64,000 nt of DNA from an uncultured Acidobacteriaceae bacterium (GCA_963771535.1 CAVYTK010000004.1:322950-386949), one strand, 5' to 3'. Positions 4,462 to 63,361 are shown, counted from the first letter of the stretch. A program made the numbers and translations. The notes: generated from the sequence alone by a model not told the origin.

Positions 4462-5789
4462 TTACCGGAATCTGTAGATGTTCCCATCCTGATCGGTTGT
4501 ATACACCGACGTTCCAAACACGGTGGGCCCGGTCTGCACAGACGAGTTGTCTCCAAACCAGCCGCTCAGGCTGAGACTGGTGCCGCTCACGTCAAATGCC
4601 TCTAGTTGTCCTTGTCCGTTGTTTGTCGTGCCGACGAAGATGATTTCATTGTTGCCCACGTTGGCGACCGCGGGAGACGAGAATTCGACTGGGCCTCCAA
4701 CCGACCCTGCCCAGAGCACTCCACCACCGCCGCTACAGCGGGCATCCACCTTCTGCAGGCCATGGCTGCTTCCAACGTAGGCAACCGGTTGCCCATTCTC
4801 TGTCACCAGAGCTGGCGAGGCATTGATCTCACCGAAGACCGGAAGGTACCCTGGATCCCAGCAAGCCTTCCCAGTATCGGCATCGTAGGCACGGAGCGAG
4901 CCTATGCTCGGAAATGCCGGCAGCGATGAGCCGATGAAGACGGTGTTGTTCAGAACCGCAGGTGCTGCCACAGTACTACCCGAAAAGCGCAGAATGCCTG
5001 CGAACTCAGGCGTGCCCCAGGCCTCGGAACCATCCCCATCGTTGAAGGCAAAGGTTTCCTGGGTGGTGGAATTCATGAAGGTTGCGATGATCACGTAAAC
5101 CTTCCCTTTGTGGTTGTGACAATCGACGGCGACGTGTAGAAGCCTTGGTAAGTAGCTCCCACGCCCTGGGACTGCCACACCGCCGCGCACTGCTTTTGGT
5201 TGTTGGTGCACTTGGCAGGATCAAATTTGTAGACGTGGCCGTCACCGCTGGGGGCATACACGAAGCCGTTGTAGATGGTCGGCGACGGTCCCTGGAACGT
5301 GGGGGAATTGTGGTTTGCCACTAATCCGTACCACAGCAGCGTTCCTTTCAACTCATCGATTGCATAGAGCTTGTCGGCGTCCATGGCATACACAACGTAC
5401 CGGGTGTCATCCACCGCGGGGGTTGAGTTGATGCTTCCCGATGCTAGTGAAAAGGGCGGCCACGCCTGGACGTTCTTGTCAGGATCCCAGGCGATCAGGT
5501 CACTGCCTCCATCGGCGAAAAGTAGAGTGTTGTGCGGAGGGAGCGGATTCAAGATCGTGTTGAGCTGGTCTACCACAACCTGGGAATTGAAGATGTAAGC
5601 GTAACTGCTGTTGTAGACCATACTGGGAACCATTGCTGCGACATTGGCCGGCTGCAGAAGGGACATTGAATTTTGCCCGGAGTGATTGGCGTCATTCCGG
5701 AACTGCCGCCAGCTGTTGTTGCTACAGCCTGTTAGGGCAAAAACAAGTAACAAGCCGGGCAGAAGCATTGCGATCTTTGGCTGTGACAT
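4462..5789 (-). CDS. PQQ-like/beta-propeller lipoprotein, apparently frameshifted
   Basis: ORF 5091..5789 starts with lipoprotein signal MSQPKIAMLLPGLLLVFALTGCSNN and has RBS GGAGGAG. ORF 4462..5211 continues the propeller in another frame (KGKVYVIIATF..., VAYVGSS, IIFVGTT, SVYTTDQDGNIYRF). The frames meet at ...SPSIVTTTKG|KVYVII... over the ccc/ttt runs at 5105-5109. Confidence 0.65.
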
Positions 5790-6206
5790 TAGTACTCCTC
5801 CTTAAATGGTTTCAACTCTGTGAAAATGGCCGAGGACTAGCAGCGCGACCGCTTTTCCGACTGCGCTGTTTTGTCCACGTTGTGGGTGTGAGGACCATCT
5901 TTTCCGAGTCGGCACATCGCCTAACTTCCGAAGCCAGGAGATCTTTGCCAACCGCTTGACCCCACACCCCAACCGCATGGCCGGAGAATGAGCCCACACC
6001 GTCGCGGGGTCAATGCACGCGAGGTGAGTTGCCGGTGAGTAGTTGGTGAGAGCGAAGCGAGAGGTGGAAGTCGCTGATTCTTCAGGGAGTGGGGCCGATG
6101 ACAAGACCCATGCGGAGTTCGATTCCCTGGTAATAACCCAAAGTCACTGCTTCTTTACACAACCGTAACAGTAGTACAATTACCGCCCAGCCCATTTTCC
6201 AAGTCT

Positions 6207-9200
6207 ATGGAACACAGCCTCTCGGCCTATGTCCGGTTCGGCGAGTTCGAGCTTGATTTGAAGAGCGGGCGGCTCTGCGGCAATGGCCAGGCTATCTACC
6301 TCGCCGAGAAGCCCTTTCGACTCCTTCTGGTACTGATCGATCACCAGGGTGGACTCGTCAATCGCGAGGACATCAAAAGGAAGCTCTGGCCCAACGACAC
6401 TGCCGTCGATTTCGAGCACGGAATCAATACGGCGATCAAAAGTCTGCGGCGCAGCCTAGGCGATTCCGCCGACCAGCCCACCTACATCGAGACGGTTCCT
6501 CGCCGCGGCTATCGCCTGATGGTTCCGGTGGAGCGCATCGTCGCATCCGTAGAGCCAGCGGGCTCACAGCTCGCGCGCCTCGCCGGAGGCCTCGCGGAAG
6601 GTCCCGGCGTACAGGCACCCCGGGGGGAGCTGATCGGAAGAACGGTTTCCCATTACCGCGTGCTTGGCATTATCGGCGGCGGCGGTATGGGCGTGGTCTA
6701 TCGCGCGGAAGACTTAAAGCTGGGTCGGGCCGTAGCCCTGAAGTTTCTGCCGGAAGAGTTGGGCAGCGACCCGCTTGCGCTGGAGCGATTCAGCCGCGAA
6801 GCGCGCTCCGCCTCCTCCCTCGACCATGTAAACATCTGTTCGATTCACGAGTTTGGCGAGCACGATGGGCACCCTTTCATCGTCATGCAATTGCTGGAAG
6901 GGCAGACATTGCGCGACCGTCTGATGGCCAGTCAGGGACCGCTTCCGCTGGCAGAGTTGCTCGACATTGCAATTCAGGTGAGTCACGGCCTGCAGACGGC
7001 GCATGACAAGGGCATCATTCACCGTGACATCAAGCCGGCCAACATCTTCCTCACCCGCAAGGGGGTCTGCAAGGTCCTTGACTTCGGCCTGGCCAAGCTG
7101 CTCGAAGCCGAAGAAGAAGCCGTTGCTGTGGCCGGTGCTTCCTCCGGCGCTTCGTCGTCAGTGCCCCTGGGCTTTACCCTGAGCCGGACCGGCTCGACCA
7201 TGGGAACGGCAGGCTACATGTCTCCCGAGCAGGTGCGGGGTGAGAAGTTGGACGCCCGCTCCGACCTCTTTTCCTTTGGCCTTGTTCTTTATGAGATGGC
7301 TACAGGACATCGCGCCTTCGGCGGCGACACGGCTGCGGTGGTTCAAACCGCTATCCTGCAAGCGGCGGCTGTGCCCGTGCAGGAGCTCAACCCAGCACTA
7401 CCTTCCAGGTTGATCGCCATCATCGACAAGAGCTTGCAGAAAGATCGAGAGGCAAGATACCAGACAGTCGCCGAGCTGCTGGCAGAGTTGCAGGACCTCG
7501 AGCTGGAGACCAAGCCCTCCCGGCCGTCGCGCTTCTGGCCCCATCACAAGGCATGGGTGGGCGCCGGCACCTTGGCTGTGCTTGGGATAGTTGGCGTGCT
7601 GCTGTACTGGCGTTCCCACAGGGCTGCACCGAACTTCGGCCAGCGAGGCACGGTAGTGATCTCCGACTTCGTGAATACCACGGGTGAGGCTGTATTCGAC
7701 GGCTCCCTGCGGCAAGCGGTCGCTTTACAAATGGGGCAGTCTCCGTACCTCAACGTCCTCCCCGACAACAAGCTGCGAGCCACTCTCCAGCAGATGGAAA
7801 AAGCTCCCGGCGAGCCATTGACGCCGGAAATTGCCGCTGAAATCTGCCTCAGGACGCACAGCAACGCCGTTCTTGCTGGATCGATCGCGCGCGTCGACAG
7901 CGCGTACCGGCTGATATTGAAAGCCCAGAGCTGCCAAACCGGAGATCCTTTCGAGGTTGTGGGGGCGCAGGCCAAAGACCAGAAGCAAGTGTTGCCTGCT
8001 TTGAATCAGGCCGCGAACGAAATGCGCAGAAGACTAGGTGAGTCTCTCGCCTCCGTACAAAAATTCGACCAGCCATTGCTCGAAGCTACCACCACATCTT
8101 TAGCAGCTTTGCAGGAGCTATCCAAGACCAGGGCCTATGGAACGCCGAGCGAGAATATTCCCTATGTGAAGCGCGCATTGGAACTGGATCCAAACTTCGC
8201 CTGGGCCTATGAACAGTTAGGTGCGAGCTATTGGAATGTGGGCGAGGGTAGTTTGGGAGCGCAATACATCTCCAAGGGCTTTGCGCTTAGGGACAAGGCA
8301 AGCCCGAGGGAGCGCTTCCAGATTGAGACCGCATACTACTCGCTGGTCACTCGAGAGTTGGAGAAAGGTGAGCAATCCGCCAGGGAATGGGCACTGAGCT
8401 ATCCCGGAGATTGGTCGCCGCATAATGCTTTGTCCATTATTTATGCCCAGGCCGGCAGGCCCGATGATGCGGTCCGCGAGATTCAGGAAGTCATCCGGCT
8501 GGTTCCGGAGAATCCCGGGGCGTATGGCAACCTGATGGAAATGGCCTGTGCCGCCAACAAGCTGAGCCTGGCGCAGTTTGCCTATGACCAGGCCCACAAG
8601 CGAAACCTGGATAGTCCGTATCTGCGTGAGTCGCGGTACATGCTGGCCTTCCTTCAGCAGGACGAGACGGCCATGCGCGAGCAGCTGCAATGGGCGGCGG
8701 GCAAGCCCAGGACGGAAGATGTGATGCTGCAGCATCAGGCGGATACCGAGTCGTACTACGGACGCATTCAGCGGTCGCGCGAAGTTGCGCGGCGAGCGGT
8801 AGAGTCTGCCAAGTCTGCCGATGCCATGGAAGCGGCTTCGCAATGGGAGCTACGGCAGGCGCTCGCCGAAGTTGAGTTGGGCAATTACAGCCGGGCCCAG
8901 CGGCTGACCGCCGACGCCCTCGCTCTGAGCAATGGGCGAGACAATCGCATCGTCGCTGCGCTCATCTATGCTCGCGCGGGAGACACCGCGAAGGCTAAAA
9001 GCCTGGGCGATGTACTGAATCAGGAGTTTTCCCTGGATACACTGCTTCAGAACGTCGCGCTCCCCAGTATCCGGGCAGCCACGGCACTGCAGCAGCACAA
9101 GCCTTTCCAGGCGATTGAGGTGCTCGGAGTAAGCGGACCTTACGAACTTGCTCAAGGTGGCATCAGCTACATCTACCCAGCTTATCTGCGTGGCCAGGCC

Positions 9201-9865: not shown

Positions 9866-11058
9866 CTACTTCCCACTTACCAACACTTCCGCTGTCGCCG
9901 ACTTGGATTTGTCCGCATCGCTGGTCGCGACTACATGGTAGGTCCCGGCAGTTGAGGGAGCAATATAGACAGCCATGCTGGCGACCGTGCCTCCCTGGGC
10001 CTTGGCGCCATGGTTCACCATGGTTCCGCCGGAGCTGCCTTCCTGTACCGACCAGGTGACGTCGGTATCGCCGCTACCCGTGACGGTGGCGGAGAAGTCA
10101 TGTGCATCTCCGGCGACGACCTGCGCTTCTGTCGGAGAAATAACGATGGTCACGTTTCCGGTGACCGCGTGCTTTGCTGGGGTGCGAGACATCAGGTAGA
10201 TCACTCCCAGCACCCCCAGCGCCAACACGACCAGCAGGGCAATCACCAACCGGCTGTTGCCGCGTTGCGCGGCGGTGTCGTCGTAGATGTAGAAGAAGGG
10301 TTCGTCTTTGCCGTGCGATGCGACCGCGGCGGCTTTCGCGACCGGCGGCGTGTCCACCGAACGAGCTGCGGCCTCACGCGCTGCCGCTTCCGCCCGTGCC
10401 GTTTTGAGCTGATGCAGGCTCCTCCGGCGTGTCGAGCCAAGTGCTGGTAGCAATGGGAACTGCAACTCGCGCGGCTTCTGGTCGAGCTGAAGTCTCGTCG
10501 AGTGATCTGCCGCACCGCTCGCAGAAGCGGTTCTCCGCCGGATTCTGTGCACCACAGGACGGGCACGTCTGGCTCGCAGCTGCTCGCGGCAGCATCCGTG
10601 GACACCGGAGCTGCCGCAGAGAACTTTTCCGGCAAAGCGTCGATCGGCAACATGCCGCGGGTGGCGGCGATCTCCTCGCCCTCGAGCAGTACCTGCTGTT
10701 CCTGCTGACGGGACAATGGTGCTTCTGCACTGGCAGCAGGCGCGGCCGGTGGCGCGGCTTGATTCACCCGGGTCTGCGGCATGGGATCCGGTTGCGTCGG
10801 AGCTACGGGCGCGGGCACTTGTCGCGGGGGAGGGGTAAACCCGAGCTCCGGCTGTCTCACGCCGGCGGTGTTCGCCGGAGGAAGCGGAGCGCGGAATGCC
10901 TCGACGGTAGATTGGGCGGCGCGGGTTGCGACGGGTGGTTCCGGTGTAACAGGCGTAGCTTCCCGAGTCCTGGCCGGCCGGGGTGCGGCGGCAGTTCCGC
11001 AACTGGCGCAGAACTTGTCGGTCGCTCGCATTGGCTCACCGCAATTTGTGCAGAACAT
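9866..11058 (-). pseudogene. Double zinc-ribbon / Pro-rich / TM / Ig-like (Big_2-like) protein split over three reading frames
   Basis: Frame of ORF 10243..11058: MFCTNCGEPMRATDKFCASCG plus a Pro-rich linker. Frame of 10374..10730: QTCPSCGAQNPAENRFCERCGRSLDE. Frame of 9866..11002: ...KDEPFFYIYDDTAAQRGNSRLVIALLVVLALGVLGVIYLM plus an Ig-like domain (VTIVISPTEAQVVAGDAHDFSATVTGSGDTDVTWSV...). Outside these segments each frame is Arg-rich nonsense. Confidence 0.6.
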
Positions 11059-11089
11059 GGCTTTCTATTTAACCCTGATCCAGTGGATT

Positions 11090-14113
<3,024 letters not shown>

Positions 14114-14131
14114 CGCCTCTAGACGGCACGG

Positions 14132-15138
14132 CTAAAGCCGTGCCCTTTCAAAGCCGGCCCACACCTCAGCCGCCGCGACTACGGTGTTGGCGTGGATCGA
14201 AACCGTGTCCTCGACGTGATTGGCATAGCCGCCGGCGTAGGTGACCATGATCGGAATGTCGCGAGCGCGTGCCACGCGGAAGACCAGCTCATCGCGCTGC
14301 TTTAGCCCGGCGACCGTCAGGTTCAGCCGCCGAGCTGGTCTTCGCGGAAAGGATCGGCTCCGGCTACGTACGAGATGAGTTGCGGGTCGAACTGCCGCAG
14401 CGCTGAGCTGAGCGCGTTGTCCAGCCATGCCAGGTACTCTTCGTCGCTGCATCCGTCGGGCAGGTTCACGTCGATGGACGAAGCCGGCTTCACGTAGGGA
14501 TAGTTGTTCTCCTGATGCAGCGAGATGGTGAAGACGTCCTGCGAGCAGCCCTGCCTCATGTTGCCGCGACCGCCTTCGACGACAGGCGGCGAAGCCGACG
14601 GCAAAGTCGGAGAACTCGCCGCCGGCTTGCTGAAGATAGCCGCCGTGCCATTGCCTTGGTGAACGTCGCAGTCAACGGTCATGGCGCGCTGGATGAGCCC
14701 GCGCTTCTGCACCGAGCGGATGGCGACCGCGATGTCATTGATCATGCAGAAGCCCTCGCCGTGATCGGGGAAGGCATGATGGAAGCCGCCGCCGACATTG
14801 ATGCAGACTCCGTCTTGCAGCGCGCGCTCGGCTGCCAGGATCGAGCCGCCGGCGTGCAGCAGGAACGTGTCCACCACCTGCGGCGAGTAGGGGATCTCCA
14901 TCTGCAGCTCTTCGCGAACCGACAGGCTGCCTTCCATCAGCTTGTTGACGTAATGCGGCGAGTGCACCAGCATCACGTCCTGCTCGGAGGCCGGAGTCGG
15001 CGGTATGAGGTCCGAGGCGTCGACCACTCCCAGCTGCGTAAGGCGCTCGATGATGAGGCGGTACTTGTCGGCGCGGAAGACGTGCTCTCCGATGGGCAGG
15101 AAATACTTCTCGCTATAGACAAGTTTGAAGGGAAGCAT
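14132..15138 (-). CDS. Histone deacetylase / acetoin-utilisation (Zn-dependent deacetylase) family protein, apparently frameshifted near the 3' end
   Basis: Motifs: HHAFPDHGEGFCMINDIAVA, DCDVHQGNGTA, YVAGADPF. ORFs 14323..15204 and 14132..14452 join as ...FREDQLGG|LNLTVAGLKQRDELV... if one base is restored at about 14323-14330. Start ATG 15138 (MLPFKLVYSEKYF) is preferred over 15204, which abuts the divergent start at 15207. Confidence 0.8.
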
Positions 15139-15206
15139 GGCCGCGAGCACAAACAGGCGATTGTACTCCGCCGATGCACACGTGGGTACGTTAAGATGAC
15201 GCATTC

Positions 15207-22432: not shown

Positions 22433-22797
22433 ATGAGCGACGAGCAGGCGCGCAGGGCGGCTGAAGATCACTATTACAGCGCGCTCGATCACTATGCGGA
22501 AGGGCGTCAGCGCGAGGCGATCGCCGAGTACGAAGCTGCGATCGCCGAAGATGCTCGTTCCTCGATGCCATGCATGGGCTGGCGCGCGTGCTTCAGGATA
22601 CGGAGCAGTACGACCGCGCTATTGGCGTTGCAAGCCGTATTACTGAACTTGATCCCGACGATGTGTTGGCGCATACCAGCCTGTCGATCCTGTATCAACG
22701 GAAGGGCATGGTTCCCGAGGCGGAGGCCGAGGCCGCGAAGGCGCGCGTGCTGGGGTGGAAGCAGCAGTTGAAGGGGAAGCCGTTGGATAGCAACTAG
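22433..22797 (+). CDS. Small TPR-repeat protein, apparently frameshifted
   Basis: ORF 22433..22771 (MSDEQARRAAEDHYYSALDHYAEGRQREAIAEYEAAIAEDAR) joins ORF 22570..22797 (...FLDAMHGLARVLQDTEQYDRAIGVASRITELDPDDVLAHTSLSILYQRKG...). The frames join if the TT at 22558-22559 is read as TTT. Confidence 0.6.
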
Positions 22798-25725: not shown

Positions 25726-25843
25726 GGTTGCTCACGCATCGGGTGCCCCATTCGGGCCGGGTTTGCCAGGGTGGGGATTTTTGTTCCCACCACCAATCAA
25801 ATACCCCACCCCGCCAAAGGCAGGCGGAATGGGGCACCCGAAA
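25726..25843. repeat. Repeat block (GGGCCGGGTTTGCC hairpin plus wobble hairpin)
   Basis: cgggtgccccattcgggccgggtttgccagggtgggg lies at 25738-25775. ccccaccccgcc-aaaggca-ggcggaatgggg lies at 25804-25834. Confidence 0.8.
25795..25836 (-). terminator. Putative intrinsic terminator (wobble hairpin) for the M28 peptidase gene
   Basis: On the minus strand CCCCATTCCGCC-N7-GGCGGGGTGGGG is followed by TATTTGATTGG. It begins 10 nt after the TGA at 25846-25844. Confidence 0.5.
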
Positions 25844-28133
25844 TCATTTTCTCGCGCCCGCCAGCTGGTCCAGCTCCGTTGCCATCTGCTCGACGAAGGC
25901 GGCTTCATCGTTCACCGCTTTCGCAACTCTGGGAACTTCCGAATCGGCCAGCTTATAGTCCTTCAGCTCGATGCTCTCGCGAATACCCGACATGGTCTTA
26001 GGACCGTAGCCGCTATACAGTCCGGGAGCGTAGAGCATGTGCTTGTAGTACGGACGCGTGGGCAGGCCGTCGGGATTGAGCAGTTGCTGTTCGGCCTTGA
26101 GCAGGCGGTCGTTGAGCGCCGTCAGCTTCGCTGCATCAGGCGATGCCTCCAGCGCCGCACTCAGCGCCTTGTTGTAGTGCTCGCCTGATTTCGCCAACGC
26201 GTCGGCAGCGTTTTGCAGCGGAGCGAAATTGATGAACGGCGGCACCTCCTCGATCTTGGGAGCGACCTCGGGACGGCGGGGATCGTTGATGGCGCGATAT
26301 ACGCCATCTTCGAGCTGCCGGTTCTGCTCCTTCACCTGCTCTTGTTTCTGTTTGAGCAGCTCCTGCACTTCTTTCAGATATTGATTCACCGCGTCGGACA
26401 GGCTGCTGAAGCGATAGGGAAGCACCTCGGCATCGGCCAGGCGCATGACCGTCATGCCGATGGTTTGCGCCAGAGCTTTGCCGTAGACAAAGTCGGTGTC
26501 GGAGAAGTGGGTGTACCAGTAGAAGTCGTCGTAGATGGAGTGATAGATGCCTTCGGGATCTTCACCGCCGTAGCCGAGGTTGAGCGACGGCACTCCGAGA
26601 TGATGTTGGAAGACGGTGTAGTCGGTGCCGGAGCCGAGGGGAAACAGCTTCCAGTCGCTGCGGTTGCGAATGGCGGTGCGCGCTTCGGCGTCTTTCGCCT
26701 CGTGAATGCGGTAGTCCTGCGCACGCTTCCAGACGGAGATGCCCGCCTCGGGATCCTGCACGTCGCGAGCGACGCCGTTAACCAGCGCTTCAAGCGAGTG
26801 AGCGCCCTCGGCTTCGAGGAATCCGCGGCCGTTGCCATCGGTGTTGATGTAGGCGACGGCGTGTTGCTGCAACTCGGTTGCATGTGTCTCGGCCCATTCG
26901 GTTGAGCCGAGCAGCATGGGCTCTTCGCCGTCCCACGAGCAATAGATGATGGTGCGCTTCGGGCTGCCATCCCTGCTTGTGCAGCTCGCCTAACGCGCGC
27001 CCTTCTTCCAGCAACGAGATCTGGCCGGAGACGGGATCTTCCGCTCCATTGACCCAGGCGTCGTGGTGATTGCCGCGCACCACCCACTCCTCGCCCTCGC
27101 TGCTACCGGCCATGCGCGAGATCACGTCGTAGACCGGACGCAATCTTCCAATCGAAGGTGACGGCGAGGTGTACCTTGGCCGCGCCGGGACCAACGTGAT
27201 AGGTGATGGGCAGCGCTCCACGCCAGGATTCGGGAGCGACTGGCCCGGTCAGCGCGGCCAGCAGCGGCTGAGCGTCGCCGTAGGAAATCGGTAGCGTAGG
27301 AATGCGCGCAAGGTTCTTCGCGTCTTTGATGTCGAGCCGCTTGGCATCTTTGGTGGCGCCGATGCCGGGCGTCAGCGGATCGCCGGGATAAGCGTGGGGG
27401 AAGTCCATCACGCTGCCGCGCTGCACGCCTTCGTGTCGGACGCATCGGTCCTGCGGGAAATGTCGTCTCGGGACCGTAGCCATCGTCTTGCGGCTCGGAA
27501 TAAATGAGGCAGCCGATGGCACCGTGCTCCCAGGCAACGCTGCGGCTTCACTCCGCGCCAGGAGTGGCCATACTTGGCGATGACGATTGCGCCCTTCACC
27601 GAAACTCCCAGCCGCTCGAGCTCTTCGTAGTCGGCGGGCACGCCATAGTTGACGAACACCAGTGGTGCGGTGACATCGCCGTCGGGCGAGTAGGCGTTGT
27701 AGGTGGGCAGCTGTTCGTTCTTCTGATTGCTGGTGGGATCAACCGCGACCGCTGGCTCTTCCAGCTTGGCGGTGAAGTGAGTCGGCGCGGTCATCTCCAG
27801 CAGCCGCGATTTCGGAGTAGGGAAGAGCACGTCGAACTGCTCGATCTTGGCGTCCCAGCCCCACGACTTCATCTGGGCTAGGATCCACTCGGCGTTGTCT
27901 TTGTCGTAGGGCGAGCCCACGTGATGAGGGCGCGCGCTGAGCCGCTGCATGTAGTCGCGCAGCAATTTCGGATCGGGGATGCTCTTGAACTTGTCTTCCC
28001 ACTGACGCTCTTGCGCGCTGGATTGCGCAGTGAAGCCAAGCAAGGGTTCGTTGCTCGCGGGCTGCGGAGATTGAGTCTGCGACGGGGAATAGACGGATCC
28101 GAACATTAAGACGACGGCGAGCAGACGACGCAC
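25844..28133 (-). pseudogene. PA-domain / M28 peptidase with transferrin-receptor-like dimerisation domain (glutamate carboxypeptidase II-like), broken by about 4 frameshifts
   Basis: Track ORFs 27408..28133, 27103..27537, 26790..27221 and 25844..26917, plus one unlisted stretch, concatenate. The joined sequence reads signal MRRLLAVVLMFGS...AKYGHSWRGVKPQ | VAWEHGAIGCLIYSEPQDDGYGPETTFPAGPMRP | GVQRGSVMDFPHAYPGDPLTPG...FDWK | RPVYDVISRMAGSSEGEEWVVRGNHHDAWVNGAEDPVSG...GWQP | KRTIIYCSWDGEEPMLLGSTEWAE... The gene has a GTG start with an AGGAGG RBS. Confidence 0.8.
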
Positions 28134-30221: not shown

Positions 30222-30557
30222 GGACTTTGCTCCCTTTCTGTACAGTCGTTTGGTTTGAGATATGGGGAGTACCGCAGTGGAATTGAGGGCGACTCCGGCG
30301 ATAGTTTCGACTTTCGGACATTGAGTCCTCCACCGGAGAAGCCGGTGATGCCTGGCCGAATCAGCCGCGGGAGCTGGTTTTCGCAAGCGGGATTCGCCGG
30401 CAGTTTTTGGCTGCCGACGATTCACTTCATGGGAAGGAATACTGTGGCGAAAGGGCCACGAAGTCAAGCAGAATCTCCGCGTAATCGTATGAAACAGCGA
30501 TGGTTACCGGATGTGCTCTAAGGCGATTACTGGGTAAACTGGGTAACAGGAGAAGCT

Positions 30558-30884
30558 ATGGCAATCACGCAAGAAGAAGTATTGGCTGCACTTAAAGAAT
30601 GTTATGACCCGGAGATTCCGGTGAACCTCGTAGATATGGGGTTGATCTACGAAGTGCGGGTTAAGCCGGCAGAGCTTCCCAATGTGGGAAGCGAAGATGT
30701 GGAGGTGGAGATGACGCTGACCTCGCCGGGATGTCCTTCGAGCGGCCACATCAGCGACCAGGTGAAGCAACGCCTGCTGCGCATGCCGGGGGTGAACCAG
30801 GCGACGGTGGAGATCGTGTGGTATCCGCAATGGACGCCGGAGCGGCTCAGCCCCGAGGCGCGCAAACAGTTGGGCATCGACTGA
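30558..30884 (+). CDS. Metal-sulfur cluster assembly factor (DUF59 / SufT-MIP18 family)
   Basis: 108 aa: EEVLAALKECYDPEIPVNLVDMGLIYEV...MTLTSPGCPSSGHI, which is the canonical DUF59 Cys motif. RBS is AGGAGAAG. Confidence 0.85.
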   Translation: MAITQEEVLAALKECYDPEIPVNLVDMGLIYEVRVKPAELPNVGSEDVEVEMTLTSPGCPSSGHISDQVKQRLLRMPGVNQATVEIVWYPQWTPERLSPEARKQLGID

Positions 30885-30938
30885 CACCGGCGCGGCGGCT
30901 CGCATCCAAGTGAAGCGTCCGGAGCACCGTTCAGAACT

Positions 30939-40791: not shown

Positions 40792-40812
40792 GCGAAAGTC
40801 CAGTCAACCATT

Positions 40813-40850
40813 CTGGGGAAGGGTGCAGTCAGAAGCAGCCCTTCCCCAGG
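40813..40850 (+). terminator. Stem-loop downstream of the phosphoesterase gene (no U-tract)
   Basis: ctggggaagggtgc-agtcagaa-gcagcccttccccag lies about 20 nt after the stop. The stem is 14 bp with one bulge. It is followed by GAGTGCC, so it is not a canonical intrinsic terminator. Confidence 0.3.
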
Positions 40851-41030
40851 AGTGCCACCAGCGCAACGTTGGCGGCGCGATTTTCACCTCACACCCGCCT
40901 GTGACCACGGTCACCGACAGCCCGGGCTGTCGCAAACCATACTTGCTCCCCAAGACGCGCCCAAGCCACCTCGGTCCCCCTGTTTTACGTTGGCGCCTCC
41001 TCGTCTGAAAGCCAGGTATGGAGAACGTTC

Positions 41031-42702
41031 ATGAAGCGTATAGGTGTGCTGTTATGTTGCCTGTTGCCGCTGATGGCATGGGGGAGTCAACAATCCTCCA
41101 CCAGCCCTGACCCCCAACTCACCTCCCAACATAAGCAACTGCCGGGCGCGCCTACGCCCAGCAACGTGACGTATACGCTGCTGGCGTGGAGCGAGCTGGG
41201 AATGCATTGCATCGACGGCAAGGATTACTCGGTGTTTTCCGTTTTGCCGCCGTACAACGTGCTGCATGCGCAGTTGCTGCGCCGGGCCGAGCCGCCGGTC
41301 CCCATCACCAGCGGAGTCGTGATCACCTATAAGGCCAGTTTCGACGTTAATCGATCGCGCAATACGATCAGCTCGACTAAGACGAACTTCTGGAGCTATG
41401 TGCAGACGCTGTTCCACGTGAGTCCGCCGCCTGACCACGGCCTGAACGGCACTCCGGTACAGAGCAAGGGGCCCAATCCGCTGACCTATAACGCAACCCT
41501 GGGCTACTGGGAAGCGGCGGGAATTCCGACCATTCCTTATGACGACACGATGCAGAGCAACCCCTACCCGATGGTGACCGTCGAGGCGAGAGAGATCAGC
41601 ACCGGGGCCCTGCTGGCGACCGCTCCTGCCGTGCTGTCGGTGAGCGACGAGCTGACCTGCGGCAAATGTCACTCGTCCACCAGCGGCGACAACGACGCTA
41701 AACCGAAAAACGGATGGGAGAACGATCCCGATCCCAGCAAGGACATGAAGTTTAATATCCTGAAGAAGCACGATGACCGCTGGGACATCAGCTTCACCCT
41801 GCCCTACCTGCAACAGAATGGCTACAACTATCAGAACACGCTGTACGCCACGGCCAAAGGCGGAACGGCTGTTCTGTGCGCCGCCTGCCACGCAACCAAC
41901 GCGCTGGGCCTGACCGGAGTTCCCGGGGTGAGTGCCCTGACGGCGGATACGCACACTCTGCACGGACCGCAGATCAATTACGACAACGGCATCTCGCTGG
42001 ACAACCAGACTGATCCGCTCAACTCGTGCTACTTGTGTCATCCGGGAAAGGTCACGAAGTGCCAGCGCGGTCCCATGAACAAGGTGGCGTGCTTTGATTG
42101 TCACGGCAATCTCACCAAGGTTGGACAGAAGACCCGCGACGGATGGCTGGACGAACCCAGCTGCCAGATGTGTCATAACACCAGCCAGCGCGTATCTGAC
42201 TACCTTCGACGGCAATGGACAGTGGCGGCAGACCAGCGACCTGACGTTCGCTACCAATCCCGACAAGCCGTTGCCGGGCAAGAGCCTGTATCGCTATAGC
42301 TCGACGCATGGCGGAGTGTACTGTTCCGGCTGTCATGGCTCGCAGCACTCCGAATACCCCAGCTTGCAGGCGAACGACAACGTCTACAGTCAGCAAATCC
42401 AAACCTACACCGGCAAGCTGACGGAATGCAGTATTTGCCACACCAACGTCCCGGTGACTAACAATCAGGGGCCGCACGCGATGCATACCATCGGGCAGAG
42501 CTGGGTCAACGGGCATCCCCACTATGCAGAGAACGGGAAGTACACCGCCTGTGCCTACTGTCATGGATCGGATTACCGGGGATCATTCCTGTCGGCGACT
42601 CGCACCAATCGGACCTTCAATACGGAGAACGGGCAGAAGAACTTCACCGCAGGTCACCAGTTCTCCTGCTATGACTGCCACAACGGTCCAAACGGGGGAT
42701 AG
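41031..42702 (+). CDS. Secreted multiheme c-type cytochrome (nine CxxCH motifs), apparently frameshifted
   Basis: Signal peptide is MKRIGVLLCCLLPLMAWG. ORF 41031..42299 carries CGKCH, CAACH, CYLCH, CFDCH and CQMCH. ORF 42094..42702 carries CSGCH, CSICH, CAYCH and CYDCH. The frames join at ...CQMCHNTS|(S)AYLTTFDGNGQW... at about 42181-42195. Confidence 0.8.
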
Positions 42703-42737
42703 GACAAGCTAATTACGCAACCGGCACAGATGCACTC

Positions 42738-42766
42738 AGCCCGTCGTGACAGACGGGCTTTTTTTG
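42738..42766 (+). terminator. Rho-independent terminator
   Basis: AGCCCGTC-gtgaca-GACGGGCT is followed by TTTTTTTG, about 35 nt after the cytochrome stop. Confidence 0.75.
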
Positions 42767-42957
42767 TCGCGTCGCGTTTTGCATCTGTTGCACCCGGGTT
42801 GCAACTGTTTCTGCCTAGTCCCATTGACACCGGGAGCTAGTAGATTGCAACATCTACTCTGCGTTACAGCGGCTCTGACGGTCATCAGCTTCCTTGAAGT
42901 TCTGCTCTCCGTTGAGTACCACCTCCGAGTTTTCCGAAATACAAAGAGGAACCATCC

Positions 42958-47991: not shown

Positions 47992-48924
47992 ATGATTCGA
48001 CTTGAGAACCTCACCAAGGAATACGACGAGGTCGTGGCGGTTCGCGACGTGTCGATCGAGATACCCGAAGGCGAAATCTACGGCCTGATCGGGCCCAATG
48101 GCGCGGGAAAAACTACCATGCTGCGCATGTGCTGCGGCCTGCTGCCGGCGACCTCGGGACGCGTCGTGGTCAACGGCATCGACGTGCAGGGCGATCTCGA
48201 AGCGGCGCAATCCCAGATTGGCTATCTTGCCGACTTCTTCTCGGTCTACGACGATTTAAAAGTTTGGGAATATCTTGACTATTTCGCGCGCTCGTACCAG
48301 CTGGACTCGACGCTGGTGCCCGAACGGGTGAACGAGGTGATCGCCGCGATTGGTCTCGAGGTGAAACGCGATTCCATGGTGAAGGGCCTGTCGCGCGGCA
48401 TGAAGCAGCGGCTGGGCATTGGCCGCGCGGTGATCCATCGTCCCAAGGTGCTGCTGCTGGACGAGCCGGCCTCGGGTCTCGATCCCAAAGCGCGCTTCGA
48501 GCTGCGACAACTACTCAAGCGGCTGCGCGACCAGGGGGCGACCATCGTGGTTTCGTCGCACATCCTGCCTGACCTGGAAGATTTCAGCACATCGATCGGA
48601 GTGATGGAACGCGGCGTGATGCTGCGCAGCGGCCGCGTGGGCGAACTGCGCCACGAGGTAGAATCGGGCGACGCTCGCACCATCCATGTTAGTTGGGTCG
48701 GGCCGGGCACCCCGGTGGCCGAGCTGTTGCGCGCGCACGGACTGCTGCAACAGGCGGTGCTCCAGGAGCATGAAGGGGCGTTTCCGTTTCGCGGAGACGA
48801 CGAAGCGCTGAGCCAGTTGCTTTCGGAGATGACGTCTGCCGGACTGCGGCTCACCGGATTTCACGAAGTCAAACAGTCGGTCGAGGAACTGTATCTGAAA
48901 CTTTCTCACGGGCAGGTGATGTGA
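47992..48924 (+). CDS. ABC transporter ATP-binding protein (ABC-2/CcmA-like)
   Basis: Start moved to ATG 47992 (MIRLENLTKEY, RBS GAGGGA). Walker A is GPNGAGKTT, the signature is LSRGMKQRLGIGRA, and Walker B is LLLDEPASGLD. Its stop overlaps the next gene start (GTGATGTGATGATGG). Confidence 0.9.
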   Translation: MIRLENLTKEYDEVVAVRDVSIEIPEGEIYGLIGPNGAGKTTMLRMCCGLLPATSGRVVVNGIDVQGDLEAAQSQIGYLADFFSVYDDLKVWEYLDYFARSYQLDSTLVPERVNEVIAAIGLEVKRDSMVKGLSRGMKQRLGIGRAVIHRPKVLLLDEPASGLDPKARFELRQLLKRLRDQGATIVVSSHILPDLEDFSTSIGVMERGVMLRSGRVGELRHEVESGDARTIHVSWVGPGTPVAELLRAHGLLQQAVLQEHEGAFPFRGDDEALSQLLSEMTSAGLRLTGFHEVKQSVEELYLKLSHGQVM

Positions 48925-50445
48925 TGATGGCTCGCAATCCTGAATTGTTGCGCTACGTGCGTTCCGAGCTGCGGCCGGCGCGAGTTGCCGTCATCGTACT
49001 GTCCAGCTGGGCGGGCGCGCTGTTGATGGCGCTGTTTGTGTATCAGCAGAACGGGCAGCGGCTCGGCCCTGCTTATTGGAGCGACGTTTTCGGAGCCGTG
49101 TTTGTGGCAGCGTCGATCATCCTGGTGCTGTGGAGCCTGCTGAACGTTTCGCAATCGGTGGTGAGCGAGCGGACGCACCGCACCTTCGATTTCTGGCGCA
49201 CGACCCGCCTCTCGTCGGTCACGCTGGCCCTGGGAAAACTTTTCGGCGCACCGCTGGGTCCGTGGCTGTTGTATGGCAGTGCGTTTCCCGTGCTGCTGGT
49301 CACCGGGTTGATAGCACATTTTCGGCTGTCCGCCATTGTGGGATCGTACCTGGTTGTTGCGCTGTTCAACGTTGCGCTCAGCTCCATTGCACTGTGCGGA
49401 TCGGCACGCGCCCAGGATGCGCGCCGGGCCAACCTCTTCATGCTGGTGCTGGTAATCGCGCTGCTGCCCACGCTGAGTGTGAATTCCAACGCGCATCATC
49501 ATGCGGGGCTGGCGAGCGCCTGGAGCGCGATGGGTCCGGCGCTCGGTATTGCCGAATGGCTGCAAGGTACCATGCTTCGGGTGTCGCTCTTCGGTATGGC
49601 GGTTCCTTCGCTGCTGGTGACGGTGGTCTTGTTGCTGGCCATCATCGCCTGGTGCCTCGTGGCGCTGAAGCGCTGCATCAAGTTCGAGCCTGACCAGATT
49701 TCGTTATTCTCTCCGGCGCAGGTGGTCGGTGTGGCAGCGTCGGTTTTGCTGTTTGTCTATGCAGGATTCCGACCCATCGACGCGTTCATCACCGCTCCGA
49801 ACTTGGCGCCGGAGGACCTGGAAACTGCGCAGCTCACGCTGCAAAGCCTGGTGGCACTTGGCATCTCCGCGGCGGTCGGTTGCCTTTATTTCGCGGTGAG
49901 TGCCACGCTGCTGACGCGCGACAATCTTCGCCATGCACTGCGCAAGCGGACGCCGATGGACGTGGCGCTGCGCGCCGTGGCTCCGTGGCTGGCCACCGGC
50001 ATGGTGTCGCTGATTGCAGCCGTGCTGGCGCTCGTCGGCTATCGCCAAATGTTTGCCGGCGCGGTACCGCAGTGGTTCAGCCTGACCGCGATGTACCTCA
50101 GCGTGATGGCGTACGTGGTGCGCGATGGCATGTTCCTGCAATGGATGGTGAGCCAGAAGGTGAAGGCGCCCGTGTTGAAGGGCTCGGCCCTGCTGCTGTG
50201 CTACTACGTGGGCAGCGTGCTGGTGGCGGCGGCGTTGGCCGGACCGCAGAACATGGTCCAGATGCTGCGCTGGCTGGTGCCGTACGTCTCGGTGCCGGGG
50301 CAATTCGAGTCAGCCGCCAATTGGATGATTGTGCCTGTTGCTGGTGCCGCCGATTGCGACGGCTGCTTTGCTGGCCGCAGGCGTGTTTCGCACCATGCGG
50401 CGCACGGGCCAGACCACGACGGTGATGGCGGGCGTCCAGGGCTAG
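48921..50445 (+). CDS. Polytopic membrane protein translationally coupled to the ABC ATPase, apparent frameshift near the 3' end
   Basis: At least 10 hydrophobic segments. After ...ESAANWMIV the listed frame becomes Arg/Gly/His-rich out to 50702. Another frame gives LCLLLVPPIATAALLAAGVFRTMRRTGQTTTVMAGVQG* ending at TAG 50443-50445, 8 nt from the convergent gene stop. Confidence 0.6.
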
Positions 50446-50453
50446 GAACGCAG

Positions 50454-51483
50454 CTACTTCGGGGGACGGGTGATGGCCTCGCGCACATCGGCCAGCGGAG
50501 CGGTGTTCACCAACGTGATGGCACCGTCGGGGGCGCGCTGGATGCCCAGCTTCTGCCAGAGGGCAGGCAGATCTACGGGAGCAGGCTTGTCGCGCATCTC
50601 GTGATAAAGATCGACGAGGACATGCGTGCCGGTCGCCTTGTCGCCGACAGCAAATGCCTGCTCGATCTCCCAATCTCGGTTGATGTTGCCGCCCGCGTTT
50701 AAGAATGCCGCGGAGCGCATCCTGCAAGCCTTTGCGGTTATGGGTCTGCTCGTGGATGCGAACATCGGCAACCAGGCAGAACATCGCGCCTCCCCAATAG
50801 GTGCGTCCCCAGGTCGGGGTGCGATCGAGACCCTGGTCGCCGGATTGGGGTTCGCCTTTCGGCATATCGCGTACCACGTCATGCCACATTGTGGTAGGCG
50901 AGAGCTGGCCGGCCTGAACGCGAGCGACGGGCTCGACATAGGTGGAAATGCCTTCTTCAATCCAGTGATGCTCCTCGGCCATGGAGGGGAACGCGAGGTG
51001 GATCATTTCGTGGGTGAGCATCCAGTCGGTGTCGAGGTCTGACGTTGTGGTAGTAGCTCCGACGGAGATGCGGATGAGTCCCCCATTGTCAGAGGGGTAG
51101 GTCACGCCACCATGTACGCCCTCGCCGCCGCGTACGCTAACCTGCAACCTGAGCTGCGGTACAGGGAACTTGCCGTAGTAGGTGCAGACGGCGGTTGAGG
51201 CGCGCTTGATCCAGTTCAGCAGAGCGTCGTTGGAGATGCCCTTGGAATCGTTATCGAAGCGGATGTCAATGTTTGCGCCGCAGGCGGGCAAGCTCTGCGA
51301 GGAAATGGCGGATGCGGATCGCGACATGAAAGTAGCCACCAGAACTGCAGCTCCCAACACGACAACCGCCAGTGAGAAACGGACCCTCAGGTTGTGCCTA
51401 TCGCCTGACGACTGGCGTGCGCGCGGCCGTTCCCCGGGTATCGGCATCCACATTGGATGCGGAGGAAAGCCACTTGCGCTCAA
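50454..51483 (-). CDS. Secreted gluzincin-type (HExxH...E) metallopeptidase-like protein, apparently frameshifted
   Basis: The zinc motif is LTHEMIHLAFPSMAEEHHWIEEGISTYVEP. ORF 50098..51483 joins ORF 50454..50960 as ...KGLQDALRGIL|NAGGNINRDWEIEQAF... if the AAA run (TTT at 50698-50700 on the + strand) is read as AA. The start is uncertain (ATG 51483, 51453 or 51447) and overlaps the DoxX 3' end. Confidence 0.6.
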
Positions 51484-51920
51484 TTAAAGCGTCGAGCGAG
51501 AGGAATCCCGGACCGTAGACCAGGATGATCAGCGATGCCAGCCAGTAAGAGAACGGGGCGGCAGCGACAAACTTGTCGGGGTCGGAGAAGATTCCCAGAA
51601 ATGCGTCGTGATCGCCGGTGTAGTAGGCCACCGTCATGTTGCCGAAGAGCAGCAGCGCGATGAGACGGGTGCCGAGTCCGAGGGCCAGCAGAATTCCACC
51701 AACCAGTTCAAGAAGCGAAACCATCATTGCCGTCGCGCCGGGCGCGGGCAGTCCCGAGGCTTCCGAAGTACTCGGTCACCTTCGCGAGATGCGTCAGTTT
51801 GCCCCAGCCGTCGACGGCGAACTGGTATCCCCAGTAGAGCCGCACGAACAACAGGAAATAGGGTTGAACCGCGTTGGCGGCCTTCACAAACTGAGCGTAG
51901 AGCCTTTGCAGGGCAGTCAT
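51398..51920 (-). CDS. DoxX-family membrane protein, apparently frameshifted
   Basis: ORF 51708..51920 (MTALQRLYAQFVKAANAVQPYFLLFVRLYWGYQFAVDGWGKLTHLAKVTEYFGSLG) joins ORF 51398..51727 (MMVSLLELVGGILLALGLGTRLIALLLFGNM...). The junction ...SLG|LPAPGATAMMVS... forms if the GGG (CCC at 51753-51755 on the + strand) is read as GG. Confidence 0.75.
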
Positions 51921-52090: not shown

Positions 52091-52960
52091 CTACGGTTTG
52101 CAAAACCATCCTGAGGCCGACCAATACGCGAACCACTTCTGCACATCGGCCATGGCTGCGTCGATATTGCGGCCGCTCCAGTCGACTTCATCCACCGCAT
52201 TGGACAGCGTGAGGCCCTGGCGCAGGGAAGTGAGAATGGTGAATGCTTCCTGGTCGATGCGTTTGAAGAAGACGGTGTTCTCGGCACGATGCACCGCCAA
52301 AAAAGTGCGCTCGGGTTTTGGAAGCCGGCGGCGGCGCGAACGGGAATGGGTGCGCTCGGTGACGGCGTTGCTCACGATGTCGGTTTCTTCCAGTTCGCTG
52401 CGAACCTTGATCAGCAGATCGTCAACCGGGTAGCTCAGATCGAGCAGCCGAATATAAGGCTGCAACTGGAAGTGAGGATCGGGACCGAGTGCGGGCAGAT
52501 CGGCTTCGGTGAGCCGCGGCCGGGCAGCTTCGTCGAAAGCTTCAATCTCGGCCCACTCCAGGCGCACCATGTCGAGTGCGATCTGCTCGTTGGCGGCGAT
52601 GTATTGCGGATGTTCGCTCAGCCATGACTGCAAGCGTGAGCCCAGGTTGCGCAGTGTGAACGACTGCGATGGGCACTCGTAGAGATATTCGACTGCCATC
52701 TTCTCAAAACGCTGCTCGCCGATGATGGCGCGCAGCCCGGGGAAATCCTCGGACAACGCCGAGAGAATGCGGAACCAATACTGCCGGTTGTAGATTTCCA
52801 GCCGCTCAAACGAGGTCAGCCGATCGTTGGGCTTGATGATTTCCTCGGCTACGGCGCGAAGCGACTTGCCCTCGCGCGAACGCTGCCGCATTCCTTCCTC
52901 GGCAGTGAGAGGCTGGCGGATGGCATCGAACATGGCGCGCTGAATGTGGTCGAGCGACAT
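52091..52960 (-). CDS. DUF2063-family protein (partner of DUF692/MNIO enzymes)
   Basis: Begins MSLDHIQRAMFDAIRQPL. The conserved block is LEIYNRQYWFRILSALSEDFPGLRAIIGEQRFEKMAVEYLYECPSQSFTLRNLGSRLQSWL. Its ATG 52960 overlaps the restored TGA of the upstream gene. Confidence 0.8.
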   Translation of the reverse strand: MSLDHIQRAMFDAIRQPLTAEEGMRQRSREGKSLRAVAEEIIKPNDRLTSFERLEIYNRQYWFRILSALSEDFPGLRAIIGEQRFEKMAVEYLYECPSQSFTLRNLGSRLQSWLSEHPQYIAANEQIALDMVRLEWAEIEAFDEAARPRLTEADLPALGPDPHFQLQPYIRLLDLSYPVDDLLIKVRSELEETDIVSNAVTERTHSRSRRRRLPKPERTFLAVHRAENTVFFKRIDQEAFTILTSLRQGLTLSNAVDEVDWSGRNIDAAMADVQKWFAYWSASGWFCKP

Positions 52961-53803
52961 CAGGCGCCTACCTTCTCGGCGACATAGCGATGGGCCTTCA
53001 GCGCCTCGTTGTGCACTTCGTCGAAGGAAGGAATGTGGTCGTCCCACTCCAGCAAGCGTGGCAGTCGGGCCGGTGAGCTCGATGGCGCGCGCGTACAGCT
53101 CCCACACGGGATCGATCACCGGATGGTCGTGCGTGTCGAGGATGTATTTCTCAAACTTCGAGTGGCCGGCAATGTGGATCTGCGCGACGCGCTCAGGCGG
53201 CACGCTGTTTACATAGTCGAAGGGATCGAAGGTGTGATTGCGCGACGACACGTAGATGTTGTTGACGTCGAGCAGAATGCCGCAGTCGGCGCGCTCGACC
53301 ACTTCGTTCAGGAACTGCCACTCCGTCATTTCGGAAGCGTGAAACTCGGCGTAGCTGCTGACGTTTTCGACGACTACCGGGACTTCGACGAAGTCGCGCA
53401 CCTCGCGGATCTTTTGCGCGGTTTTGGCGGCGGCTTCGAAGGTGTAGGGCATGGGCAGCAGGTCGTGCGAGTAGCTGCCGTCGACGCTGCCCCAGCAAAG
53501 ATGATCGGAGAGCCACGGCGTATTGGTGCGGCGCACCAGCGCTTTCAGGCGCTTCAGGTGCTCGCGGTTCGGTGGCTCGACGGAGCCGAAATACATGGAG
53601 ACGCCGTGCTGCACCACGCGATACTGCTCGAGAATCTGGTCGAGGATGTGCAGCGGACGGCCGCCATCGACCATGAAATTTTCGGAGATGATTTCGAACC
53701 AGTCGACGACCGGCTTTTTCTCCAGGATGTGGTTGTAATGCGGAATGCGAAGTCCGATGCCGACTCCGTAATCGGTGAAACCGTTGAAGCGATTGGCAGG
53801 CAT
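52960..53803 (-). CDS. DUF692 / multinuclear non-heme iron oxidase (MbnB/TglH/BufB-like), one apparent frameshift
   Basis: TIM-barrel DUF692 signature: MPANRFNGFTDYGVGIGLRIPHYNHIL...DWFEIISENFM...VQHGVSMYFGS...WLSDHLCW...VENVSSY...LLDVNNIYVS...IHIAGH. After ...ELTGPTAT the alternative frame gives the canonical end LLEWDDHIPSFDEVHNEALKAHRYVAEKVGA*. The break is at about 53050-53060. The track shows it fused to the next gene as one 570-aa ORF. Confidence 0.85.
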
Positions 53804-53889
53804 TGGAAAAATTCGTGGCCCAGGTGATTGCGAAAAGTTGATACGGGCCGAAGCTGGTTAACTCCGGCCCCTGTGATGAGTCAGGAGGG

Positions 53890-55272: not shown

Positions 55273-55316
55273 ACGACGATTGTTGCGGATATGTAATTGC
55301 GGCGGCAGAGTTCCTC

Positions 55317-57701: not shown

Positions 57702-57788
57702 GGCGAATGAAAATGGAACCTTTCCATCGTAGTCAGGGAAAAATTAAGTAGCCAGTTTCCAGCCAATTTCGCAATCCAGCTTAAAATC

Positions 57789-59234: not shown

Positions 59235-59240
59235 GTAGGA

Positions 59241-59819: not shown

Positions 59820-59971
59820 AGAGGACCTTCCCGGTACTAGCATGGCTGAAAAATGGCGGCGTGGGAAGAGGTCGGCGCCGTCGATCTCGCTTGCAAGTTT
59901 CTTGCGAGCGCAGTCACCGCGGCGCGAGCAGAAAGCAGGTCCTTCGCTGCGCTCAGGATGACAGGGCACGC

Positions 59972-60739: not shown

Positions 60740-60862
60740 TCACCAGATAGCGCGCACGCGCGCCTTTGGCGAGTCTATCAGCCGAGCAGCGGGAGGAAGT
60801 CGATTGCGGGGAGTCGGCCGATCCGTCACAGCGTGACAGTTTCGTGTGCTGCAGTCACAACT

Positions 60863-62296: not shown

Positions 62297-62522
62297 GGTC
62301 GTCTTTACCCTGAAAGTGGTGTGATCGAGCAGCTTACCTCGTCGCTGGGTCAGATTCAAATGCAAACGTGGGAATGGGTTGTGCGCGGTGCTGTTTACGG
62401 TTCGTTTACAAGGATGTGTGAAACTTTCGCTGGCGGCACGGGTCTGAAGGTTTAATCGCAGTTTCGAGCCGGGCCTGGCCCAGATTGCATCTAAAGAAAA
62501 CAGTGTCAATAATGAGACCATT

Positions 62523-63361
62523 TTGAAGCTGCCGCGCATCGTGCCATCCCGTGCTGTTTGGCTGTTGCTGATCGCAGTCGCGTGCTGCGCTGCCCAGGCG
62601 CACGCGAGCACTCCCGATCTTGATCGCGGATATCGCCAGATGTACAACCTGGATTTTACGGGCGCTCACGCCACCTTCCACCAGTTTCAGCAGGCGAATC
62701 CAAACGATCCCATGGGATACGTCTCTAACGCGGCTGCGTATTTGTTCTCGGAGTTCGAACGGCTGCACGTACTGGAATCGGACTTGTTCGTTGACGATAA
62801 GAGCTTCGACAGTCGTCGCAAGCTGACGCCGGACCCGGCGATCAAGGCGGAATTTGACTCGCACCTGGCGAAGGCCGAGGCGCTTGCGGACGCCGCGCTG
62901 GCAAAGAATCCGAAGGATTCGGATGCGCTGTTTGCCAAGGTACTGGCGAATGGATTACGCAGCGACTATGCAGCGCTGATCGAAAAGCGCAATGTGGCGA
63001 GCCTGGGATACATGAAGACCGTCACGCGCGCTGGCCGCAGCAACTGCTCGCCATCGACCCTACGCGTTACGATGCGTACCTATCGCTGGGGGCGGAGAAC
63101 TACCTGCTGGGAGCGAACTCTGCGCCGGTCCGCTGGATGCTGAGCCTTACCGGAGCGAAGACCGACAAGCAGCAGGGAATTGAGCAGCTGCGGATCGTGG
63201 CGGAGAAGGGCCACTACCTTGCTCCCTTCGCGCGGCTACTGCTTGCCGTTGCGGCGCTGCGCGACAAAGACAATCCCAAGGCAAAGATGCTGCTCGCCGG
63301 ACTCGCCACCGAATTTCCCGATAACAAGTTGTATTCCAAAGAGCTGTCGCGAATCCAGTAG
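62523..63361 (+). CDS. Secreted helical-repeat hypothetical protein, apparently frameshifted
   Basis: Signal peptide is MKLPRIVPSRAVWLLLIAVACCAAQAHA. After ...ASLGYMK the +1 frame continues ...HARWPQQLLAIDPTRYDAYLSLGAENYLLGANSAPVRWMLSLTGAKTDKQQGIEQLRIVAEKGHYLAPF...SRIQ*, which includes ORF 63137..63361. The break is at about 63015-63022. Confidence 0.6.

Follow-up and report, generated by a model that had tools for sequence, protein, structure and literature searches.

The stretch of DNA analyzed here, 64,000 nucleotides (nt) from the genome of an uncultured Acidobacteriaceae bacterium (C4:322950-386949, referred to below as the window), raises the question of whether the many genes in it with an interrupted reading frame are truly broken in the organism or were broken only when its genome was assembled. 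The original prediction, made from this sequence alone, listed at least 18 reading-frame breaks in about 14 recognizable genes and attributed them to homopolymer insertion or deletion (indel) errors in the assembly, with genuine pseudogene accumulation as the alternative. We compared the window and the remainder of the genome (4.68 Mb, 59% G+C, 8 contigs) with relatives from a set of 13 genomes of the same genus, with which it shares 72-89% DNA identity. The evidence is comparative throughout, and it indicates, with a probability that we put at roughly 0.93, that the breaks arose as single-base mistakes in the consensus of a long-read metagenome assembly, left uncorrected, and not through gene decay.

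Private indels in the window, the genome and its sister assemblies

The window was mapped block by block onto five to seven relatives, and 19 orthologous blocks (35.3 kb) were aligned using MAFFT. An indel was regarded as private when the gap was confined to one genome, each block being compared with four to seven same-genus genomes, while genes without DNA-level orthologs in the aligned relatives (the zinc-ribbon, multihaem cytochrome, and propeller genes) were judged by protein comparison. All 18 predicted breaks were present in the deposited sequence, at most 13 nt from where they had been placed, and alignments or homologs with a single open reading frame (ORF) confirmed for all 18 sites that the break lies inside one recognizable gene. 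Two further coding breaks were located at 13863 and 63035, so the original count of at least 18 holds for every listed site but rises to at least 20. Every break is a 1-nt indel that is private to this assembly, as judged against four to nine same-genus genomes or more distant full-length homologs; about 17 of these events are insertions (+1) and three are deletions (-1). Clean private insertions were seen at 14 sites (13863, 26960, 27144, 27432, 27541, 29957, 31572, 42955, 50334, 50701, 51756, 53057, 63021, and 63035) and clean private deletions at two (14326 and 22552) in the same MAFFT blocks, and at the private-indel columns the relatives (four to seven genomes) all agree with one another. 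Furthermore, reading through the breaks recovers full Pfam matches that are missing from the fragments, namely PA together with Peptidase_M28 and TFR_dimer, MbnB_TglH_ChrH, DoxX, and two zinc ribbons together with an Ig-like domain. The comparison with orthologs, which had been named as a check on the original prediction, turned out in favor of assembly error: same-genus genomes and homologs lack the indels.

The mechanism that had been proposed, indel error in homopolymers, is not supported by this comparison. Nanopore errors of the homopolymer type are typically located in runs of at least 4-5 nt, and deletions are common among them. Most of the inserted bases are flanked by unlike bases, as in CTT[C]GGG, ACGC[T]GCG, GATA[G]CTC, CCC[G]AGG, and AAG[C]GTG (inserted base in brackets). 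About a third of the inserted bases extend a run of 1-2 nt to one of 2-3 nt, which is at or below the chance of ~0.44 for a random inserted base, and no run of 4 nt or more was found at any indel of the window.

Frame switches were then called across the whole genome with a hidden Markov model (HMM), built as a 3-periodic fourth-order Markov model that was trained on 409 long ORFs from the same genome. The decoder was a seven-state Viterbi procedure in which direct switching between frames is permitted, and breaks were told from true gene boundaries by how far the frame that is left continues before its next stop, which is at least 24 nt for breaks. This analysis returned 683 candidates, a density of 14.6 per 100 kb overall and of 13-20 per 100 kb on every one of the 8 contigs. 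With 12 candidates, the window stands at about the 70th percentile among 64-kb bins, and these 12 switch calls cover 13 of its 20 known sites, the pair 63021/63035 giving rise to one call. Precision was estimated from a random sample, since candidates ranked by the length of their flanking segments were enriched for true operon boundaries (RND pump/outer-membrane factor and MacB pairs). Seven of ten random candidates outside the window fell within one Pfam domain (class II aminoacyl-tRNA synthetase, PBP1A transglycosylase, methylmalonyl-CoA mutase, COX2, NamZ, GNAT, and histidine kinase of the HisKA type), and two were ordinary gene boundaries. Because the precision of the HMM is about 75-90% and its sensitivity about 60-65%, we estimate that the whole genome contains some 800-1,000 breaks, or about one per 4-6 kb. 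The local clustering noted originally was also recovered genome-wide, where the breaks are over-dispersed: the variance-to-mean ratio is about 1.8, and 12.6% of neighbor distances are shorter than 300 nt, as opposed to the 4.3% expected. Low local depth, the reason suggested originally, may underlie this clustering and the bias toward insertions, as may collapsed strain variation.

When the sister assemblies of the genus were examined in the same manner, their break rates differed roughly tenfold. Private frameshifting indels occur at 0.48/kb in the window and likewise at 0.48/kb in the relative designated G006 (18 HMM candidates, 18 per 100 kb), at 0.25/kb in G004 (23 candidates, 23 per 100 kb), and at 0/kb in G008, for which only 9 kb were aligned and which nevertheless has 13 candidates (17 per 100 kb). 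The corresponding values are 0.06/kb with 0 candidates in 95 kb for G001 and 0.05/kb with 2 candidates in 77 kb (2.6 per 100 kb) for G010. The same orthologs carry differing private indels in G004, G006, and G008 and essentially none in G001 and G010; in G004, for example, the M28 peptidase gene is split into ORFs of 500 and 438 amino acids (aa), and the gene of the small TPR protein has an extra T of its own. Break frequency depends on the individual assembly and not on the lineage.

As for the provenance of these assemblies, the genus relatives named in public records are all Microflora Danica metagenome-assembled genomes (MAGs) of the MFD*.bin series, deposited as 'uncultured Acidobacteriaceae bacterium'. 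Only nanopore reads went into the Microflora Danica long-read catalogue, which was assembled with Flye (--meta --nano-hq) and given one Medaka round; its authors screened low-coverage MAGs for effects of nanopore errors (PMC12313526). R10.4 assemblies reportedly reach a near-finished state only when coverage is around 40-fold (PMC9262707), a requirement that fits a soil MAG of modest depth. Judging from its relatives, the genome studied here probably comes from the same nanopore-only pipeline. If so, the combination of Flye --meta and a single round of Medaka would have made this genome as it made the relatives, and its level of error would reflect a modest read depth and/or a mixture of strains in the soil metagenome. 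On the assembly-error reading, the indels do not exist in the DNA of the organism, and its true proteins are obtained by reading through the breaks.

Essential genes, selective constraint and gene decay

Breaks of the same kind were found in essential single-copy genes elsewhere in the genome. The single gyrB locus (C3:52918-55524) consists of two frame segments owing to one extra A, which is absent in nine genus genomes, and the 350-nt alignment around it is otherwise gap-free. Two breaks divide ftsZ (C3:1443001-1444392) into three segments in different frames, and the FtsZ_C domain crosses one of the junctions, while dnaE (C7:524395-527802) has three breaks and four frame segments and atpD (C3:294352-295773) one break and two frame segments. 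These breaks are placed at C3:54893 in gyrB, C3:1443864 and 1444107 in ftsZ, C7:525159, 525249, and 527190 in dnaE, and C3:295515 in atpD. The genes ftsZ, atpD, and gyrB have no further copy in the genome, and the sole paralog of dnaE is 32% identical to it.

The spectrum of lesions and the constraint on the affected genes were considered as well. In real mutational decay, nonsense codons become about as numerous as frameshifts, and bacterial mutation is deletion-biased, with a spectrum typical of slippage. In this genome, however, there are at most nine possible interruptions by in-frame stops as against about 680 frame switches. The direction of the switches called by the HMM is '+1' in 495 cases and '-1' in 188, and the aligned, resolved sites give 14 versus 2. 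Downstream of breaks, substitution rates relative to G001 are about 0.05/0.04/0.35 at codon positions 1/2/3, equal to those of unbroken control genes, and for the M28 peptidase of the window the values downstream of all four of its breaks are 0.05/0.04/0.33. The broken genes are under undiminished purifying, codon-periodic constraint.

These data make it very improbable that the genome is a decaying one in which real frameshift mutations have accumulated pseudogenes. The breaks are truly there in the deposited sequence, their clustering is what would be expected of decay in genes that are already dead, and the large conserved genes rpoB, rpoC, secA, groEL, and recA are unbroken, all of which would suit such decay. 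On the other hand, it would have to have struck gyrB, ftsZ, dnaE, and atpD while leaving no intact copy, with hardly any nonsense codons and with a preference for insertions between unlike bases that is opposite to both the deletion bias and the slippage of bacteria. It would also have to have left codon-periodic constraint downstream of the breaks undiminished, spread its lesions at uniform density over all contigs, and produced private indels that differ among three sister assemblies and are essentially lacking in two others. We therefore side with the original prediction in its choice of assembly error over pseudogenes; the private character of the indels, their density on all contigs, the damage to essential genes, the scarcity of stops, and the preserved constraint all point in that direction. 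Four independent lines favor assembly error over decay: essential single-copy genes are broken, the lesions are almost purely indels, insertions predominate, and constraint is unchanged.

Two observations weigh against assembly error and should be set beside these arguments. First, rpoB, rpoC, and secA, which jointly span 11.5 kb, contain no break where about 2-4 would be expected (P roughly 0.02-0.1), and groEL and recA are likewise unbroken. Selection against genuine lesions would be compatible with the breakless state of rpoB, rpoC, and secA too, but the clustered occurrence of errors accounts for it just as well. Second, errors that are dominated by insertions and lie outside homopolymers are not the textbook signature of nanopore sequencing.

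Broken genes of the window

The genes affected and their breaks are listed in Table 1. Three of them were judged on the protein level. In the propeller lipoprotein, PQQ_2 matches both fragments, the HMM changes frame at 5118, and three full-length homologs (P0001-P0003, 437-454 aa) align across the junction position by position, which implies that a base is missing from the GGGAA at this place. The protein is very rare: a search of 5.8 billion proteins retrieved no more than these three full-length relatives (59, 39, and 37% identity), and neither 150 genomes of the order nor 400 of the phylum (E≤1e-8) yielded a homolog. The zinc-ribbon gene is a single ORF in four relatives (G001, G004, G006, and G009), whereas in the window three ORFs hold one conserved part each, and read-through yields two Zn_ribbon matches and one I-set match. 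The frame order 0, 2, 1 implies two +1 shifts in this gene, their type being deduced from that order. For the multihaem cytochrome, the family has orthologs in five further genera, all of them single ORFs of 555-614 aa, and the protein alignment runs from ...CQMCHNTSQR directly into YLTTFD..., with no residue lost and one extra base in between.

Table 1. Genes of the window with a broken reading frame. Relatives: number of same-genus genomes against which the change is private.
Gene	Coordinates (strand)	Frame change	Remark	Relatives
PQQ-like beta-propeller lipoprotein	4462-5789 (-)	-1 in GGGAA at 5102-5106 (coding strand)	ORFs 5091-5789 and 4462-5211	
Zinc-ribbon/Ig-like membrane protein	9866-11058 (-)	two +1 implied, near 10590 and 10400 (span 10374-10730)	three frames	
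3.0-kb Ser/Thr kinase	(-)	+1 at 13863	within first ~10 codons	4
Histone-deacetylase-family gene	14132-15204 (-)	-1 at 14326		5
Small TPR protein	22433-22797 (+)	-1 (GG to G) at 22552-22553		5
M28/PA/TFR_dimer peptidase	25844-28133 (-)	four +1 at 26960, 27144, 27432, 27541		6
Secreted protein, ~610 aa	28106 to about 30150 (-)	+1 at 29957	splits twin-arginine signal region from mature part	7
Plus-strand gene	30939 to about 31640 (+)	+1 (GG to GGG) at 31572	about 20 codons upstream of stop	4
LolC/E / MacB-type permease	31911-33201 (+)	frame change at about 32334-32337	variable linker	
Multihaem cytochrome c, ~555 aa	41031-42702 (+)	+1 in CGCG, 42190-42192		
Polytopic membrane protein	48921-50425 (+)	+1 at 50334	near 3' end	4
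Convergent gene with HExxH-type motif	50454-51483 (-)	+1 (A to AA) at 50701		5
DoxX	51398-51920 (-)	+1 at 51756		5
MNIO/DUF692 RiPP enzyme	52963 to about 53800 (-)	+1 at 53057	32 codons from gene end	5
TPR-like secreted protein	62593-63361 (+)	two +1 at 63021 and 63035	14 nt apart	5

The kinase bears on the earlier statement that the largest genes of the window are intact, which fails for this gene. Its relatives read LD(L/I)AVGS(T/S)LLQYTIV in one frame and the window reads it in two, so that the true start lies at about 13880-13890 and the apparent ATG at 14113 is spurious. Otherwise, the impression that the largest genes are spared largely reflects survivorship, in that a gene with a break does not surface as a large ORF. 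Next to the kinase, the N-terminal fragment of the deacetylase-family gene matches positions 1-247 of 298 of the Hist_deacetyl profile only, and read-through gives a stop-free product of 357 aa. In the small TPR protein, the HMM changes frame at 22554, close to the deletion seen in the alignment.

No fragment of the M28 peptidase gene has an M28 match, and it is only the read-through product that matches PA, Peptidase_M28, and TFR_dimer. Just downstream of this gene, at 25800-25845, there is an element of ~40 bp, copies of which, 91-98% identical, are scattered in every genome of the genus; in G001 (C1:822328-822873), at least nine copies form a tandem array with a spacing of ~64 bp. The element behaves like a repeat of the repetitive extragenic palindrome or miniature inverted-repeat transposable element (REP/MITE) type.

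Read-through of the adjacent secreted protein is open across its insertion, and although it had been labelled 'haloperoxidase-like', neither the fragments nor the read-through product has a Pfam match. The break predicted near 31575 is real, but it belongs to a gene on the plus strand, whose coding signal in the HMM stops at 31572. ORF 30504-31607 on the minus strand was rejected as a real gene, as it is antisense to this plus-strand gene according to the HMM and the read-through and has no Pfam match. The permease gene that follows has a +1 relative to its closest relative (CCC versus CC in G004, where a single ORF of 466 aa is present); its MacB_PCD match falls into two parts (profile positions 1-108 and 119-206), and read-through yields 431 aa.

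The breaks at about 50325 and 50699 had been listed together, yet they affect two different, convergent genes. In the polytopic membrane protein, the HMM changes frame at 50334, exactly at the insertion, and read-through gives 510 aa, and in the gene with the HExxH-type motif the switch is called at 50697 and read-through gives 342 aa. The read-through product of the DoxX gene matches positions 2-82 of 85 of the DoxX profile. In the MNIO/DUF692 gene, which encodes an enzyme of the ribosomally synthesized and post-translationally modified peptide (RiPP) type, the HMM delimits segments of 738 and 96 nt, and the read-through product covers positions 1-262 of 263 of the MbnB_TglH_ChrH profile (355 bits); the DUF2063 gene after it (52091-52961) is intact. 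The two neighboring insertions in the TPR-like secreted protein gave a single HMM switch at 63030, and reading through both yields 285 aa.

Several side observations were also made. The cytochrome region (40745-42787) measures ~2.0 kb in the window and about 230-260 bp between the same flanks in G004, G001, and G006, and the orthologs of the cytochrome in other genera of the family share 57-63% amino-acid identity with it; this suggests that the gene was gained or differentially lost within the genus. The gene at 36057-37460 (minus strand) contains a private in-frame insertion of 24 nt at 36833-36856 (GCATCTTGCGCTGCGTCTTGTGCA) that is absent in four relatives. It resembles an imperfect local duplication, keeps the frame, and could be real. 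Finally, the synteny of the window is a mosaic, in that its blocks, with borders at ~9800, 16100, 22400, 33200, 46700, and ~50405-50463, sit on different contigs or far apart in the relatives. Either gene order is poorly conserved in the genus, or some of the assemblies contain misjoins.

Origin of the inserted bases and comparison with known systems

If the breaks are errors of the consensus, the predominance of insertions outside homopolymers still calls for an explanation. One candidate is a systematic consensus artefact, present in three sister MAGs and absent from two, as opposed to random noise of low depth; we consider this unlikely. A more specific version, which we regard as similarly doubtful, is the collapse of strain heterogeneity, whereby both alleles of a strain single-nucleotide polymorphism are written consecutively and give a +1. 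It would account for the insertion bias, for the non-homopolymer context, and for the clustering of the errors, and the soil MAGs of the source study do show microdiversity (PMC12313526). Moreover, 6 of the 14 insertions (29957, 63021, 27144, 27432, 53057, and 51756) display both alleles of the relatives at one variable column. However, this proportion is not clearly above that for random insertion beside wobble positions (about 0.3 by a rough estimate), and several insertions, among them 26960 and 27541, adjoin invariant columns.

Another possibility is that the organism itself restores the frame by biological recoding, that is, by programmed +1 frameshifting or quadruplet decoding. As most of the events are +1, one rule of four-base decoding could in principle suffice. 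When the contexts were compared by eye, however, neither a methylation-type motif nor a quadruplet codon common to the insertion sites was seen, and the 14 resolved coding-strand sites shared no quadruplet, slippery motif, or downstream structure. Nor was a four-base word seen that is common to the sites and kept in orthologs and that would be matched by a tRNA with an 8-nt anticodon loop. The extra base is missing in every ortholog, whereas programmed sites are conserved; in addition, -1 events occur too, and G001 and G010 have essentially no such breaks. We consider recoding to be extremely improbable and retain errors of the assembly as the explanation of the breaks.

The value of this result is practical, not biological. 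In this genome, which serves as a species representative, roughly a fifth of the genes come out of gene calling in pieces, and it is unsafe to infer from it that genes are pseudogenes or have been lost, that enzymes are truncated, or that a domain architecture is odd. All of its frameshifted calls should be read through, and the frameshifted genes of the window, among them those for the MNIO/DUF692 RiPP enzyme, DoxX, the multihaem cytochrome, and the M28 peptidase, are best regarded as intact. The same defect is shared by at least G004, G006, and G008, which like this genome need polishing before gene content is inferred from them, while G001 and G010 are clean and can be used as references. 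Should the artefact of two consecutively written alleles be true, the places where the frame shifts would point to polymorphisms in the natural population, and many genomes of a large public MAG catalogue would be affected in a predictable and correctable way.

Among known systems, three invite comparison. Pseudogene-rich genomes, such as those of Mycobacterium leprae, Sodalis, and host-restricted Salmonella, resemble the present one in having hundreds of interrupted genes with intact orthologs. In those organisms, essential genes are intact, stops and deletions occur beside frameshifts, and constraint is relaxed, whereas here gyrB, ftsZ, dnaE, and atpD are hit, stops are nearly absent, and constraint is intact. 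In programmed frameshifting of the prfB type, as at our sites, the frame of a functional gene changes by +1. Sites of that type are conserved in orthologs and have a defined slippery/stop context and an upstream element similar to a Shine-Dalgarno sequence, while the sites described here are private and their contexts unrelated. The third comparison is with nanopore-only (meta)genome assemblies (Sereika et al. 2022, PMC9262707; MFD-LR, PMC12313526). The literature on these stresses insertions and deletions within long homopolymers, whereas about 72-85% of the events found here are +1 insertions, mostly between unlike bases. The likeness lies in the private, genome-wide occurrence of single-base indels, in split ORFs that rejoin to full length, in a genus that consists of such MAGs, and in a rate that varies between MAGs of one pipeline.

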